Below are positions 43,918 through 64,000 of a stretch of DNA of 64,000 nucleotides, one piece after another. The position numbers and the translations under genes were made by a program. The DNA is from an uncultured delta proteobacterium (GTDB taxonomy: Bacteria > Myxococcota > UBA727 > VGSZ01): positions 64,001 to 128,000 of the forward strand of contig CAVZJB010000016.1 of the NCBI GenBank assembly GCA_963775425.1, given 5' to 3'. The notes beneath the pieces were generated by a model. That model was given only the letters and a program-made list of their open reading frames with translations, was not told the DNA's origin and did not search any database. How positions within the stretch are numbered: the stretch's first letter is position 1; the number at the start of each line of letters is the position of its first letter.

Positions 43918-44139
43918 TCAGCGCCGGACCTCGACGGCCACCACGCGGCCGGGCCCTTCCTCCTCGATGACATCGAGCTCGACGTCGACGGCGCCCCGGC
44001 GCGCGAGGAGCTTGCGCGCGGTCTCTCGCACCGCCTCCGACGCCGCCGGCGCCGCCAGCGTCACGGCGGCGAGGGCGCCACCGCGGCCTCGCGCGAGGGC
44101 GACGGCTTCATTCACAATGCGCTCGAGGTCGCGAAGCAT
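43918..44139 (-). CDS. Small hypothetical protein (possible HypA-like fold without Zn finger)
   Basis: 73-aa ORF with a GAGG RBS, directly downstream of the globin kinase. Confidence 0.55.
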   Translation of the reverse strand: MLRDLERIVNEAVALARGRGGALAAVTLAAPAASEAVRETARKLLARRGAVDVELDVIEEEGPGRVVAVEVRR

Positions 44140-44151
44140 GCCTCGGGGAAG

Positions 44152-44167
44152 TCCACGAGGCGTGCCA
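44152..44167 (-). promoter_or_regulatory. Sigma54-like promoter (variant -12)
   Basis: Minus strand TGGCACGCCTCGTGGA: perfect -24 box, GG-N10-GG instead of GG-N10-GC. Confidence 0.4.
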
Positions 44168-44172
44168 CCCGC

Positions 44173-45609
44173 TCATTCGTCGATGGGACGCAGCGCAATC
44201 ACGAAGCCCGCACCGGCGAGCGGGCTTTTGCACAGGGAGAGTGTGCCACCCATCGCTTCGATGATCTTGCGCGCGATGGGGAGGCCGAGCCCGGTGCCGC
44301 GGGTCTTGGTGGTGAAGAACGGCTCGAAGATTCGTTCGCGCGCGTCGCCGGGGATGCCCGGACCGTCGTCGAAGACGAACACGCGCGTGTCGTCGACGCG
44401 GACGCGCACGCTGGTGGCGCCGGCCTGGACGGCGTTCTGCATCAGGTTCAACAGGACCTGCGTGACGAGCGCTGCGTCGCCCTGCGCGGTGCCTCCCCCC
44501 TCCACCTTCGCCGCCGGCTCCGCGGACGCCGCCGCCTGCGCGATGATGCCCAGGTCGAGCGGGCGCGGCTGCACCGTGATCGGGCGCGAGAAGCTCAAGA
44601 GGTCGCCGACCAGGGCCCCCAGCCGGACGATGTGGTCCTGGACCTTCTGCAGGGCGATGCTGCGCTTGTCGTCGGGCGGCAACGTGCCCTGGACGACCTG
44701 CACGGTGCCGGAGATGCCCGCGAGCGGGTTCCTGATCTCGTGCGCCACCGACGCCGCCATCATGCCGAGCTTGGCGAGGTGCGCCGCGCGCTTGGCACGC
44801 GCCTCCGACGCGACGACGTCGGTGAGGTCCTCGAGGTGGATCATGGTGGCGGCCATCGGGTGCTCGAGGGGCGCGATGGTGACGCGGTAAGCGCAGTCGG
44901 TGCCGTCGAGGACCGCGTCCACGCGAGGCAGGACGGTCTCTCGGCCGGTCTCCATCGCGCGCGCGATGCGCCGCGGGAGCTCGGCGGCGTCGAGGAGCGG
45001 GCCGGCGATGACCTCGTCGAAGCGCTTGCCGACGAAGGCGTCGCCGACGAGGGCGCGGCTGTGCGGGTGGGTGGAGGACGCGACGCGGCCGTCCTTGTCG
45101 AGGACGAGCACCGTCATCGGCAGGTGGGAGACGATCAGCTCGCGCAGACCCGCGAGGCCCTCCTCCTCGCGCGTCTCCATATAGGTGCCGAGCATGACGG
45201 CGAGCTCGATGTCCGTGATGCGCAGGATGGACAGCACGGTGGCGGGATCCGGTGCGTGGCGCACGAAGTCCTGGCGCAGCAGGCACATGGCGGTGAACAT
45301 GTATTGCTGCGGCAGCTTCACCCGCACGTGCATCCGGCCGATGCGCTGGCGCAGCTCGTAGTAGGCCTCGTCGTGGGGACCGGCGCACAGCTCGCCCATC
45401 CAACGCACCAGGCTCGCCTTGAGCCGCTCCACCTGGGCGAGGTCGGCGAACACCGCCTTGGCGCTCTCGAAGCGCAGGACGGCGTCGTAGAAGCAATCGG
45501 CGATGGCGCGCGCCTCGGGCGCGATGCGGGGCCAGATGGCTTGCAGGCGGGCGGTGTCGGCGTCGGTGAAGCCGACGTAGTCCTTCAGCTCGTCCATCGG
45601 AGACTGCAT
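44173..45609 (-). CDS. Globin-coupled sensor histidine kinase (protoglobin-PAS-HisKA-HATPase)
   Basis: ELKDYVGF...DCFYD...W..EL..GP.DEAYY..R.RIGRMHVR.KLPQQYMF closely follows Anaeromyxobacter AfGcHK. Kinase motifs AHEIRNPL, NLMQNA, DDGPG, FFTTK, GTGLGL. Confidence 0.93.
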   Translation of the reverse strand: MQSPMDELKDYVGFTDADTARLQAIWPRIAPEARAIADCFYDAVLRFESAKAVFADLAQVERLKASLVRWMGELCAGPHDEAYYELRQRIGRMHVRVKLPQQYMFTAMCLLRQDFVRHAPDPATVLSILRITDIELAVMLGTYMETREEEGLAGLRELIVSHLPMTVLVLDKDGRVASSTHPHSRALVGDAFVGKRFDEVIAGPLLDAAELPRRIARAMETGRETVLPRVDAVLDGTDCAYRVTIAPLEHPMAATMIHLEDLTDVVASEARAKRAAHLAKLGMMAASVAHEIRNPLAGISGTVQVVQGTLPPDDKRSIALQKVQDHIVRLGALVGDLLSFSRPITVQPRPLDLGIIAQAAASAEPAAKVEGGGTAQGDAALVTQVLLNLMQNAVQAGATSVRVRVDDTRVFVFDDGPGIPGDARERIFEPFFTTKTRGTGLGLPIARKIIEAMGGTLSLCKSPLAGAGFVIALRPIDE

Positions 45610-45732
45610 TCCTGGCGGATTTTCGGGCACAACCCGCCTTGGGGCAAAGAACGCACGGGCTCTGTGTGATATCCCCCAGCCGAAAGGGGCGAGGGTGGCG
45701 GCCATTGGCGCCGTGCGGCCTCGCACAGCAGT

Positions 45733-45747
45733 TGGCACACCCCCTGC
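45733..45747 (+). promoter_or_regulatory. Sigma54 (-24/-12) promoter
   Basis: TGGCACACCCCCTGC with exact GG-N10-GC spacing, 30 nt upstream of the NtrC-family gene. Confidence 0.7.
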
Positions 45748-45776
45748 CAAGAGCAGCGCAGACCCCCGAGGTTTCC

Positions 45777-61746: not shown

Positions 61747-63145
61747 GGCGCACCTCGTCGAGCGCGCCGATCATGAAGAGCTTGTCGGCCGCCACGTCGT
61801 CGCAGCGGCCCTCGAGGATGGCGGCGACGCCCTCGACGGTGTCGGCGATCGAGACGCGCTTGCCGCGAACGCCGGTGAACGACTCCGTCACGAAGAACGG
61901 CTGCGTGAGGAAGTTCCGCAGCTTGCGCGCGCGCAGCACCAGGGCGCGGTCGTCGGGGGTGAGCTCGTCCATGCCGAGCATCGAGATGATGTCGCGCAGC
62001 TCGTCGTAGCGCGCGAGGGTGCGGCGGGCGTCCTCGGCGACCTGGTGGTGGCGCGCGCCGACGATGGCCGGGTCGAGGGCCTTGGACGACGACGTCAGCG
62101 GGTCCACGGCGGGGTAGTAGCCCTCGGCGGCGACGTCGCGCGAGAGCACCAGGGCGCTGTCCATGTGCCAGAAGGCGTGGGTGACGGCGGGGTCGCCGTA
62201 GTCGTCGGCGGGGACGTACACCGCCTGCACCGAGATCATGCCGCCGCGGTGCGTGGCGGTGATGCGCTCTTCGATGGCGGCGATGTCGGCGGCGAGCGTG
62301 GGCTGGTAGCCGACGCGCGAGGGGAGGCGGCCGAGCAACCCGCTCACCTCCATGCCCGCCTGCACGTGGCGATAGAGGTTGTCGACGACGAACATGACGT
62401 CCTGGCCGAGGTCGTCGCGGAAGTATTCGGCGACGCTCAAGGCGGCGAGGCCGATCATGAAGCGCGCGCCGGGCGTCTCCTTCATCTGCCCGAAGACCAG
62501 GGCGGTGCGGTCGAAGACGCCGCGCCGCTTCATCTCGTCCCACAGCTCGAGGCCCTCGCGCGAGCGCTCGCCGATGCCGGCGAACACCGCGACGCCGCTC
62601 ATCTGGTCGACGGCGTTGTGGATGAACTCGGTGAGCACGATGGTCTTGCCGACACCGGCGCCGCCGAAGACCGCGGCGCGGCCGCCCCGCAGGAACGGGC
62701 AGAACAGGTCGATGACCTTGATGCCGGTCTCGTAGACCTCCCCCCACGGGCGGCGCTCCGACGGCGGCGGCGGCGGGCGGATGAGCGGCAAGCGGGGCGC
62801 GCCCGTGATCGGGGGGCCGCCGTCGAGCGGCCGGCCCTCGAGGTCGACGACGCGCCCGAGCAGGGCGTTGCCGACGGGGACGGTCAGCGGCCCGTCGTCG
62901 CCGCGCGCGAGCGCCCCGCGGCGGAGGCCGCGGGTGGAGTCGACGGCGATGGCGCGCACGCGGCCGCCGCCGATGTGCGCGTGGACGACCGCGGTGACGA
63001 TGCCGCCGCCCGCGAGCTCGCAGCGCAGCGCGCTCGACAACGGCGGCGGCGCGCCGTCGATGTCGATGTCGAGGACGGTGCCGCGCACGCCCGACACGTG
63101 GCCGCGCACGGGCAACAAGGACGCAGGCTCGAGGCTCTCTGCCAC
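61739..63145 (-). CDS. atpD: N-type ATPase beta subunit
   Basis: [56 protein letters not shown]. Confidence 0.96.
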
Positions 63146-63157
63146 GCCCGGGGTAAA

Positions 63158-63173
63158 TCCAACATCCGTGCCG
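63158..63173 (-). promoter_or_regulatory. Sigma54-like promoter upstream of atpD (variant -12)
   Basis: Minus strand CGGCACGGATGTTGGA (GG-N10-GG). Confidence 0.4.
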
Positions 63174-63343
63174 CCCTGCGTCGGCGCACACTGACGTGTC
63201 GTTCGGACGGATTCGTGCGTTTCAGCCCGCCCCCTGTGTCAATGCGCACGGGCCGGCGTCGGTGGGGGCACGCTGCGGGCGAATCTCCACACGCCGGGCG
63301 TGTGCGCCGCGCCTGCCACGGCGACCGGCGGCCTGCCCACGAC

Positions 63344-63359
63344 GGGCACGAAAGAGGCA
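63344..63359 (+). promoter_or_regulatory. Sigma54-like promoter upstream of ldh
   Basis: GGGCACGAAAGAGGCA with GG-N10-GC spacing, followed by a GGAGG RBS. Confidence 0.5.
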
Positions 63360-63383
63360 TCACCGAGGGGGGAGGAAGACGAG

Positions 63384-64000
63384 ATGCACAGCGAGGGAGC
63401 CACGGTCGTCGTCGTCGGGGCCGGTCACGTCGGGAGCGCGTTCGCCTTCGCCCTCCTGCGCAGCCGGCTGGTCGAGCGCCTCGTGCTCACGGACGCGGAG
63501 CTGCCGCGGGCGCAGGGCGAGGCCATGGACCTCGCGCACGCGGTCCCGTTCGGCCCGCCCATCGAGGTCGAGGCCGTGCCGCTCGACGCCGTCCCCCGGG
63601 CCGACGTCACCGTCGTCACGGCGGGCGTGGCGCAGCGCCCGGGGGAGACGCGCGTGGCGCTCGCCAGGCGAAACGCCGGCATCCTCAGGGGCATCGCGCG
63701 CGGCGTCGCGGACAAGAGCCCCGACGGCATCATCATCGTCGCCACCAACCCGGTCGACGCGATGACGTGGCTGTTGTGGAAGGAGACCGGCCTGTCGCCG
63801 CGCGCGGTGTTCGGCTCCGGCACCGTCCTCGACTCCGCTCGCTTTCGCTCCATGCTGTCGGCCCACGCCGGCGTGGACGCGCGCAGCATCCACGCGCACA
63901 TCGTGGGCGAGCACGGCGACAGCGAGGTGCCCCTGTGGTCGCTCGCCACCGTGGGCGGCGCGCCGTTCTCGGCGTTTTGCGAGGAGCGCGGCGCCGCGTG
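63384..64000 (+). CDS. ldh: L-lactate dehydrogenase (3' truncated by window edge; absent from ORF track)
   Basis: Manual translation: VVVVGAGHVG...GEAMDLAH...TAGVAQRPGETR...ATNPVD...GSGTVLDSARFR...GEHGDSE. Gln at the specificity position indicates LDH rather than MDH. Confidence 0.93.
   Translation, partial: MHSEGATVVVVGAGHVGSAFAFALLRSRLVERLVLTDAELPRAQGEAMDLAHAVPFGPPIEVEAVPLDAVPRADVTVVTAGVAQRPGETRVALARRNAGILRGIARGVADKSPDGIIIVATNPVDAMTWLLWKETGLSPRAVFGSGTVLDSARFRSMLSAHAGVDARSIHAHIVGEHGDSEVPLWSLATVGGAPFSAFCEERGAA

Follow-up and report, generated by a model that had tools for sequence, protein, structure and literature searches.

This report concerns the right-hand 20 kb of a 64,000-nucleotide stretch of DNA (the window) from an uncultured delta proteobacterium of the phylum Myxococcota, where a globin-coupled histidine kinase and an NtrC-type activator lie near an operon for an N-ATPase and a gene for L-lactate dehydrogenase (LDH). 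The window corresponds to G000:C16:64001-128000, G000 being the source genome (8.26 Mb, 72% G+C, 18 contigs). An initial annotation of this DNA had interpreted the region as a single regulon that is turned on when O2 drops. We favour, with moderate confidence, a different interpretation, namely two separable units, each relying on sigma54: unit A, which holds the kinase, the activator NtrC1 and genes for universal stress proteins (USP) and a CBS-pair protein, and is conserved, and unit B, which holds the N-ATPase operon and ldh, and is variable. Unit A (43918-48617) appears to be a conserved heme-based two-component module that responds to a gas, most likely O2. The N-ATPase operon is probably sigma54-dependent, and ldh is so less surely. 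The gene inventory claimed by the initial annotation for the 20-kb region was recovered completely with Pfam and NCBIfam, and its four sigma54-like boxes, at 44152, 45733, 63158 and 63344, were all found there.

Because of the high G+C content, genes in the window were called by codon-position G+C and then confirmed with Pfam and NCBIfam. The genes of unit A are as follows.

43918-44139, minus strand: small73, a 73-codon open reading frame (ORF) directly downstream of the globin kinase and conserved there, family unassigned
44173-45609, minus strand: globin-coupled histidine kinase, Protoglobin-PAS_4-HisKA-HATPase_c (Pfam)
45777-47243, plus strand: NtrC1, an enhancer-binding response regulator, REC-Sigma54_activat-HTH_8 (Pfam), divergent from the kinase
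47267-47752, plus strand: USP1 (PF00582, E 1.4e-22), 23 nt after ntrC1
47752-48237, plus strand: USP2 (PF00582), with its ATG at 47752 and a 1-nt overlap with the USP1 stop
48234-48617, plus strand: CBS-pair protein (PF00571, E 5e-25), with a 4-nt overlap with USP2

The sensor domain of the kinase matches PF11563 (E 2.8e-28), the transmitter matches PF00512 and PF02518, and a PAS domain sits between the globin and the kinase core. Residues 1-145 align to the globin chain 5ohe_A of AfGcHK (E 2.6e-28), and the distal Tyr of the FYD motif and the proximal His of the GRxHVR motif are both retained in the alignment, so that the globin domain keeps its heme ligands. The tight gene spacing suggests that ntrC1-usp1-usp2-cbs form one operon.

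To place unit A among relatives, 40 genomes were searched with the globin kinase, the DNA around the kinase was fetched for the 11 genomes that bear an orthologue, and the window proteins were placed on these 11 loci by tblastn. The kinase adjoins NtrC1 in 8 of the 11 (G002, G005, G006, G007, G009, G013, G016 and G017), in divergent, convergent or tandem arrangement. In G004 the pair is broken by a contig end, and in G008 and G010 NtrC1 was not found on the kinase contigs, which are short (8.2 and 7.5 kb). NtrC1 orthologues are 67-80% identical in 7 genomes of the family, and G000 shares the recognition helix, ISRYALRYRMEKF, unchanged with the sister genus (G002, G004 and G006). The complete set, small73-kinase and NtrC1-USP-USP-CBS, was found in G002 and G006, with small73 also present in G004; in G005, a CBS gene (53% identical) lies upstream of ntrC1 with USP genes nearby. 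The pairing of kinase and activator is therefore conserved, and the operon of the activator includes USP and CBS genes.

The ORF small73, which the initial annotation had left unnamed, is the unit behind the box at 44152. Its orthologues in G002, G004 and G006 are 44-51% identical; it gave no match in Pfam or NCBIfam, and a search of the Atlas returned nothing usable. Its AlphaFold model (predicted local distance difference test score 68) gave nothing at E ≤ 0.001 in a Foldseek search against the PDB; the best match, an Smr domain at E 0.077, was considered and not accepted, and no function was assigned. The protein has 73-75 residues across genomes, a predicted helix-strand-helix-strand-strand order, weak Smr-like fold matches, and in four genomes a putative sigma54 promoter of its own. 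Convergent with it, at ~42790-43905 (plus strand), is a gene whose product has Cys-rich repeats and a signal like that of a lipoprotein, LAAVAGGC; the filter on third-codon-position G+C called shadow frames there. In G006, too, the region past small73 encodes a Cys-rich C-terminus of this kind, which suggests synteny on the left side of the module. A paralogous globin kinase on G000:C17 (L002:8971-13999; 54-56% identity, without a PAS match) is followed by USP and hemerythrin genes and lies opposite a radical-SAM gene and 2-oxoacid dehydrogenase genes, with a 10/12 sigma54-like box ~40 nt upstream. The C17 gene set resembles the Nmp regulon as presented in the available text of PMC11841059.

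The conservation ends behind the CBS gene. In G002 and G006 this gene is followed by phoB/phoR-like genes, pstS, pstC, pstB and phoU, and the phoBR-pstS genes of G000 are located on C17. The next G002 genes (FtsY, a Ser/Thr kinase and two more) recur in G000 at C16:160.8-165.6 kb. Because synteny with G002 resumes only ~48 kb later, we conclude that ~48 kb in G000 occupies the place of ~9 kb in G002. This variable segment, of which unit B (from about 48.7 kb of the window onward) is part, contains a second activator cluster (NtrC2), the N-ATPase operon, ldh and genes past the window end. Matches to the atp genes or to LDH were found at none of the 11 kinase loci by tblastn (L057, checked separately, was blank too).

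The genes of unit B are listed below.

56677-63145, minus strand: the N-ATPase operon, atpD-C-Q-R-B-E-F-A-G (Pfam and NCBIfam), composed of the next nine genes
61739-63145, minus strand: atpD, with the start codon GTG
61297-61746, minus strand: atpC
61013-61300, minus strand: atpQ (PF09527, E 3.5e-08)
~60756-61040, minus strand: atpR, assigned by position, size and hydrophobicity
60085-60852, minus strand: atpB
59828-60088, minus strand: atpE, the c subunit
59024-59824, minus strand: atpF
57519-59027, minus strand: atpA
56677-57522, minus strand: atpG
63384-64000, plus strand, continuing to window-equivalent position 64331: L-lactate dehydrogenase (TIGR01771)

The gene order atpD-atpC-atpQ-atpR-atpB-atpE-atpF-atpA-atpG matches the order that defines N-ATPases. 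No family match to a delta (OSCP) subunit was found among the ORFs of the operon, in which atpA directly follows atpF. The putative AtpR is a hydrophobic, AtpR-sized, Arg-containing ORF in the expected place, which matched neither PF12966 nor an NCBIfam model. The c subunit (59828-60088) reads ...ALGEARIG... and ...MVESTAIF..., with Glu in both helices and ESTxxF in place of ESTxxY; because one ligand of ESTxxY is lost, Na+ specificity is disfavoured by the published rule, as given in the accessible part of PMC2881411. Other alpha and beta subunit genes of G000 were found by tblastn on C14 and C12, and C3 carries a second operon of the N type (~532.4-539.8 kb; L003:9456-16795). The C3 operon encodes a canonical AtpR (PF12966), its neighbours are unrelated (mevalonate-pathway genes and a CheB-CheR-PAS fusion), and a 9/12 sigma54-like box lies 12 nt before a plausible atpD ATG (L003:10073).

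In the 40 relatives, the beta subunit found only matches of 46-51% identity, which is the level of the paralogues of G000 itself. Orthologues of the N-ATPase were sought via the beta subunit in 400 sampled genomes of the phylum, and seven of these (G376, G359, G152, G209, G096, G151 and G218) encode one at 76-80% identity. Within the 7-20 kb that were fetched for each, all seven loci show atpD-C-Q-B-E-F-A-G to the contig limits (L089 stops inside atpF), atpR gave a tblastn match in none of the seven operons, and LDH, USP, CBS and globin kinase genes were found at none of the seven loci. A search with AtpG returned 13 loci at 25-31% identity, which are distant gamma subunits of other phyla and were not used. 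Several neighbours of the orthologous operons deserve mention. In one genus, TreT lies upstream of the N-ATPase (G218, L085; G151, L086; G209, L087), and in G000 TreT is 12 kb from the operon. G218 has a zinc-dependent alcohol dehydrogenase (Zn-ADH) and ppsA as a pair divergent from atpD, and G209 has an ADH remnant. A ClC-CBS chloride channel and FtsH adjoin the operon in G376 (L090), and a P-type ATPase with a hemerythrin tail does so in G151. In G096 (L088), a Memo-like gene and an enhancer-binding protein (EBP) of the sigma54 type, with two PAS domains and a Cys-rich stretch, lie immediately upstream of atpD; an orthologue of this EBP was looked for in G000, where the best match was 39% identical over part of the protein only, and was rejected.

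The LDH scored 329.6 bits with TIGR01771 (cut-off 303.55), and the malate dehydrogenase models stayed below their cut-offs. The full sequence contains AQRPGETR and GEHGD, whose residues, the substrate-loop Gln among them, we take to have their usual meaning. Among the 40 relatives, an LDH orthologue was found only in G010 (58% identity; other matches ~30%), where ldh is divergent from a gene for phosphoenolpyruvate synthase or pyruvate phosphate dikinase (ppsA). The N-ATPase and LDH genes thus lie in a variable segment, and no relative carries an orthologue of either beside the kinase module. The initial annotation had itself named a lack of conserved linkage as a reason to give up the single regulon; linkage was found at none of the 11 kinase loci and at none of the seven N-ATPase loci, and one conserved regulon is thus not supported.

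The evidence that both units use sigma54 comes from the boxes in front of them, which were scored out of 12 consensus positions.

44167-44152, minus strand: TGGCACGCCTCGTGGA, before small73, 12 nt before the ATG, with the -12 C replaced by G
45733-45748, plus strand: TGGCACACCCCCTGCC, before ntrC1, 9/12
63173-63158, minus strand: CGGCACGGATGTTGGA, before atpD, 12 nt before the GTG, with the -12 C replaced by G
63344-63359, plus strand: GGGCACGAAAGAGGCA, before ldh, 9/12, 24 nt before the ATG
63303-63318, minus strand: TGGCAGGCGCGGCGCA, a second 9/12 sigma54-like box toward atpD, with no comparative support

The boxes at 45733 and 63344 follow the GG-N10-GC pattern. Homologues of the small73 box, GGGCACGGCGATTGC(T/G) (11/12), lie between the kinase stop and small73 in G002, G004 and G006, 11 nt before the start, and homologues of the atpD box, GGGCACGGGCCTTGCT (11/12), lie just upstream of atpD in G096 and G359. 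Between the ldh box and the ATG there is a Shine-Dalgarno-like GGGAGGAAG. In G010, the ldh box is CGGCACGGCGAGTGCT (10/12), 12 nt before the ATG, and an 11/12 box stands 11 nt ahead of the ATG of the divergent ppsA. The ntrC1 box is part of a perfect palindrome, TTGGCA-N7-TGCCAA (45732-45750), which lies 26 nt before the ntrC1 ATG, scores 9/12 on both strands and may serve as a promoter in both directions or as the binding site of a regulator; the corresponding region reads TGGCAYG-N4-CATGKA in G002, G004 and G006 and GGGCACAGCTCTTGCC in G007, and in G009 no box was seen upstream of ntrC1. The proposal that the boxes are promoters is supported for small73, ntrC1 and atpD and more weakly for ldh, in each case by orthologous loci, and the LDH and ntrC1 boxes are weaker than those of small73 and atpD.

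G000 contains rpoN and ~39 EBP genes. Across the genome, 386 boxes score at least 10/12, and 62 of them have a start codon 11-13 nt downstream against 15.6 expected. For this class, GG and the -12 G were required, the start had to open a long ORF with high third-position G+C, and the expectation is the mean of 5.2 per other offset times three offsets. The reversed-motif control showed no peak at 11-13 nt (32 against 38). The small73 and atpD boxes both belong to the 11-13-nt class. As 9/12 sites show only codon periodicity, this test adds no weight to the boxes of ldh and ntrC1. With the -12 C set at -12, the expected start of transcription is only a few bases away from these start codons, and the mRNAs of the class would be leaderless or nearly so; about 45 such sigma54 transcripts are suggested by the excess. 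The same 11-13-nt spacing recurs in relatives before small73 (G002, G004 and G006) and before ldh and ppsA (G010). In the literature searched, we found no work that joins leaderless mRNAs with sigma54 in myxobacteria; the PexR paper was considered as a precedent and set aside, as its "leaderless" concerns a sigmaA promoter.

The 238-nt spacer between atpD and ldh holds two boxes of at least 9/12 under strict and three under relaxed scoring, against 0.18 and 0.23 in 5000 dinucleotide shuffles (P 0.014 and 0.003). Two 9/12 boxes are weak evidence alone, because such boxes occur at ~0.33 per kb genome-wide. A window-wide count of TGGCAC-N5-TTGC showed no enrichment (35 matches at ≤2 mismatches against 51.6 expected) and was replaced by the spacer shuffles and the comparison between genomes because it is the wrong test for single promoters. 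Simple scans of 43801-63800 found no sigma70 promoter-like site and five terminator-like sites against 3.8 expected; both scans are uninformative.

Taken together, these observations suggest the following mechanism. The globin kinase, with its heme ligands kept, would phosphorylate the adjacent NtrC1, and NtrC1 would drive two sigma54 promoters, that of its own operon, ntrC1-usp1-usp2-cbs, and that of small73. Unit A may work as a shortened Myxococcus xanthus NmpRSTU pathway that lacks the inverting hybrid kinase, and because that kinase is missing the sign of its O2 response is not given by analogy. The accessory N-ATPase operon would be read from a leaderless-type sigma54 promoter, and the divergent ldh probably from a weaker one. 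Because these are sigma54 promoters, the N-ATPase and ldh would need an EBP, for which NtrC1 is the best single candidate of the ~39 because of one site that resembles an upstream activating sequence (UAS).

Several findings weigh against this two-unit interpretation. The canonical -12 C is missing from the boxes at 44152 and 63158, those of small73 and atpD. The other two score only 9/12, a score without the genome-wide start-codon peak. In G152, G218, G151, G209 and G376, no box of at least 9/12 was found upstream of atpD on the atpD strand; because five of the seven orthologous operons lack a good atpD box, sigma54 control is not general in this N-ATPase lineage. Finally, in G000 itself the division into two units may not hold, as the UAS-like site in the atpD-LDH spacer and the identical recognition helix of NtrC1 fit direct control by NtrC1.

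This last point leads to the alternative that we regard as possible and hold only tentatively, that of a single regulon in which the globin kinase, via NtrC1, activates small73, its own operon, the N-ATPase and ldh, and fermentative ATP fuels the N-ATPase under O2 limitation, so that the membrane would stay energised. Its main evidence is a 17-mer upstream of the ntrC1 box that is conserved in G002, G004 and G006 (TGTGTGATTGCGCACAC, AGTGTCATTGCGCACAG and AGTGGCATTGCGCACAG) and in G002 ends 50 nt before the box. The elements concerned are the following.

63235-63251, plus strand: candidate UAS TGTGTCAATGCGCACGG, in the middle of the atpD-LDH spacer, with 2 mismatches to the consensus WGTGKSATTGCGCACAS
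45652-45660, plus strand: CGCACGGGC block upstream of ntrC1, which aligns with the right half of the sister-genus 17-mer (MAFFT)
63184-63191, plus strand, with an inverted copy at 63300-63307: GCGCACAC, two copies in the spacer against 0.023 expected, found post hoc

In the 8.26 Mb of G000, the consensus WGTGKSATTGCGCACAS has no match at 0-1 mismatch and six at 2 mismatches. The site at 63235-63251 is the only one of the six that lies in an intergenic spacer with sigma54 boxes of at least 9/12 on both sides. Three of the other five sites are coding, one is without a clear coding frame and one is at a non-coding edge; the only sigma54 boxes within 300 nt of these five were one of 9/12 each at C11:452280 and C4:82778. 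The chance that a random site falls in the 238-nt spacer is ~2e-4, a figure whose true weight is smaller because the likeness of the 17-mer was noticed before it was tested. The G002 and G006 17-mers were also tried in G000 as literal strings and dropped, since the G002 string differs from the spacer site at 4 positions, and only the degenerate consensus reveals that site. Relative to the start of atpD, the centre of the 17-mer lies at about -96; the corresponding value in G002 is about -85, a difference of one helical turn. The MAFFT alignment of the ntrC1 upstream region has invariant CGCAC columns, and the 9-mer CGCACGGGC recurs within 63243-63253 of the spacer. The single regulon also gains from the NtrC1 recognition helix shared with the sister genus, from the enrichment of sigma54-like boxes in the spacer, from the recurrence of a dehydrogenase beside the pump (Zn-ADH/ppsA in G218, the ADH remnant in G209), and from the higher abundance of N-ATPase subunits of Nitrospira marina at low O2 in the proteome described in the available part of PMC8115632.

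Against these points stands, besides the missing linkage, the distribution of the 17-mer itself. The ntrC1 promoter of G000 retains only half of it (CGCACGGGC). In the sister genus it is no commoner than its reversed control (2-7 against 3-8 matches at ≤2 mismatches, outside the defining site), so that it defines no wider regulon. Some 39 EBPs compete for the two promoters. The NmpR site GCGCA-N5-TGCGC was absent from 45610-45776 and 63146-63383 at ≤1 mismatch, and at the same stringency the window has 30 such sites against 23.8 expected. In addition, O2 binding enhances the autophosphorylation of AfGcHK, according to the part of PMC8697598 available to us; because of this activation by O2, direct wiring of the kinase to NtrC1 predicts a system that is on in O2, unless the PAS domain changes the logic, and the earlier claim that the system is on when O2 drops finds no support by analogy. 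On balance, recruitment of NtrC1 to the atpD-LDH spacer seems to us a minority possibility, which the 17-mer may keep alive, as the Zn-ADH/ppsA pair of G218 may do for the logic of fermentation plus pump.

A further alternative, which we judge unlikely, is that the N-ATPase and ldh are controlled by the NtrC2/REC/HAMP-kinase cluster or by another EBP, and form a stress island for ions, osmolarity or the envelope that has nothing to do with O2. The genes between unit A and the N-ATPase operon are listed below.

48759-50141, plus strand: NtrC2, a second EBP (Pfam)
50173-50961, plus strand: REC protein (Pfam)
51007-51858, plus strand: hyp283, 283 residues, no family
51880-53361, plus strand: membrane HAMP kinase (Pfam)
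53407-55440, plus strand: hyp677, 677 codons, no family match
55419-56009, plus strand: S-adenosylmethionine (SAM) methyltransferase (Pfam)
55969-56619, minus strand: AAA_28 P-loop protein downstream of atpG (PF13521, E 2.4e-19)

NtrC2 and the membrane HAMP kinase, which relatives lack, thus separate unit A from the ATPase; for the HAMP kinase, no orthologue was found among the 40 (best match 38% identity, in G008). The segment also carries CusCBA, MIP, TreT and CopD genes, the orthologous N-ATPases have TreT as a neighbour in G218, G151 and G209 and a ClC-CBS channel in G376, and the EBP upstream of atpD in G096 is of the PAS-PAS type and an orthologue of neither NtrC1 nor NtrC2. Moreover, the usual view of N-ATPases, in the accessible text of PMC2881411 and PMC5376962, is that they serve as salt or acid pumps. 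This explanation is weakened by the absence of a cis-element that would tie NtrC2 to the atpD-LDH spacer (where the repeat upstream of NtrC2 was not searched), by the lack of a sigma54 box of at least 7/12 in the spacer upstream of NtrC2, and by the absence of an NtrC2-like gene near all seven orthologous operons.

The cbs-ntrC2 spacer contains an 11-nt tandem repeat, CGAAGATCGAA x2, at ~48694-48715, and a hairpin-like inverted repeat directly follows the cbs stop. The hyp677 ORF is located in the most G+C-rich part of the region (0.75-0.77), where the AT skew is strongly negative. Past ldh and the window end (L001:1541-14644) lie genes for CusA/CusB/OEP efflux, a MIP channel, an extracytoplasmic function (ECF) sigma factor, Methyltransf_31, a rhomboid protein, TreT and CopD, which give the variable segment what looks like a metal and osmotic stress flavour.

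That the atpD and ldh boxes are chance look-alikes beside ordinary promoters in a coincidental neighbourhood is very improbable, since the flat window-wide count, the frequency of 9/12 boxes (0.33 per kb), the G for the -12 C before atpD and the five of seven orthologous operons without a box, which would all agree with it, are set against the positional match of the atpD box to the 11/12 boxes of G096 and G359, its exact 12-nt spacing as in the class of 62 boxes, the spacer enrichment (P 0.003-0.014) and the lack of sigma70-like promoters in a scan that is itself uninformative.

The two-unit interpretation and its alternatives differ in what they would mean. We advance only tentatively the possibility that a heme-globin kinase has been rewired, via its NtrC-type partner, onto a laterally acquired N-ATPase and LDH, with one enhancer site between divergent sigma54 promoters, one of them giving a leaderless mRNA, so that O2 sets fermentation and pump together. 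If true, this would be gas-sensor-controlled membrane energisation and would give the first regulator assigned to any N-ATPase. Control by sigma54 and an EBP is indicated for this N-ATPase lineage by the two G000 operons together with those of G096 and G359. The lineage repeatedly has TreT and an NAD-dependent dehydrogenase (LDH or ADH/ppsA) next to it, which points to low O2, fermentation and osmotic stress; the pairing of N-ATPase and dehydrogenase in two distant families (LDH in G000, ADH/ppsA in G218), with TreT, is worth following on few independent instances. The leaderless-type sigma54 class, of which the literature searched holds no description, would matter, if real, for the annotation of gene starts and for the translation of EBP-dependent genes.

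Among known systems, the DosS/DosT-DosR system of Mycobacterium tuberculosis also has heme kinases that sense gas and a USP-rich regulon. DosR differs in being LuxR-type and acting at sigma70-type promoters, with GAF-heme rather than globin sensors and no sigma54. The hypoxia-induced USPs of the DosR regulon are cited in the discussion of the Nmp paper, in the part available to us (PMC11841059).

The N-ATPase of G000 resembles the known ones, as they were defined by Dibrova et al. (2010) from the operon, AtpR and the c-subunit motif with Glu and ESTxxY (PMC2881411, in the part available), in its atpDCQRBEFAG order, its AtpQ, its occurrence in addition to a housekeeping F-type enzyme, its patchy distribution and the two Glu residues of its c subunit. 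It differs in an AtpR that falls below the Pfam model, in ESTxxF, and in the presence of two N-ATPase operons in one genome. In Burkholderia pseudomallei, the enzyme has an H+-coupled c17 ring for which acid protection was proposed by Schulz et al., and the accessible text of that paper describes N-ATPases as widespread accessory pumps with a largely unexplored physiological role and regulation (PMC5376962). A sigma54 promoter is not mentioned for N-ATPases in the available parts of PMC2881411 and PMC5376962, and no work that joins the two was found in the literature searched. The N. marina case is alike in tying an accessory N-ATPase to O2 limitation; it differs in coming from another phylum and in being proteomic, with no regulator identified in the portion of PMC8115632 at hand.

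AfGcHK of Anaeromyxobacter sp. Fw109-5 (PDB 5OHE/5OHF/6OTD) has the same order of a sensor globin followed by HisKA and HATPase, and the G000 kinase differs from it in the PAS_4 domain between globin and kinase core. The partners differ too, being NtrC-type in G000, while nmpS, nmpT and nmpU are conserved in Anaeromyxobacter according to the consulted sections of PMC11841059.

The known system closest to unit A is the Nmp system of M. xanthus. As the available text of PMC11841059 describes it, the protoglobin kinase NmpU, a homologue of AfGcHK, acts via the hybrid kinase NmpS on the NtrC-like NmpR, which drives the sigma54 promoters of its own operon (CBS gene first), of a USP gene, of genes for a P-type ATPase and cbb3 oxidase, and of hemN-hemerythrin; NmpR is on under O2 limitation, the signal being inverted by NmpS. 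The supposition that nothing comparable had been described was therefore too broad, as the route from globin kinase through an NtrC-like regulator to CBS and USP genes is published there and the rise of an N-ATPase at low O2 in PMC8115632, each in the part available to us. The N-ATPase and LDH are not among the members of the Nmp regulon named in the same part of PMC11841059. Nmp-like loci with a globin kinase, a second kinase and an EBP occur in G151, G152 and G218, far from their N-ATPases, and the EBP encoded at such loci in three f14 genomes is 43-45% identical to NtrC1, which is no closer to it than to other EBPs. Hemerythrin belongs to the NmpRSTU regulon, and in G000 it adjoins the paralogous kinase on C17. 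Unit A is unlike NmpRSTU in that its kinase has an extra PAS domain and stands directly beside the activator, and in that the modules of G000, G002 and G006 are without the REC-HisKA hybrid NmpS or the double-REC NmpT; because the inverting NmpS is missing, activity of the NmpR type in hypoxia is not evident for unit A. The two systems are alike in having a protoglobin histidine kinase on top and an NtrC-like sigma54 activator below. In NmpRSTU, the activator autoregulates its own operon and targets CBS and USP genes, and the same is proposed for unit A, where the ntrC1-usp1-usp2-cbs operon behind its 9/12 sigma54 box, with boxes also in the orthologues, makes autoregulation a putative feature. 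Thus, the core of sensor, activator, USP and CBS proteins is a compact variant of the published Nmp system, and the conserved six-gene globin-kinase module, as a simpler and directly wired relative, might reveal what determines the sign of an O2 response in the presence and in the absence of an inverting kinase.

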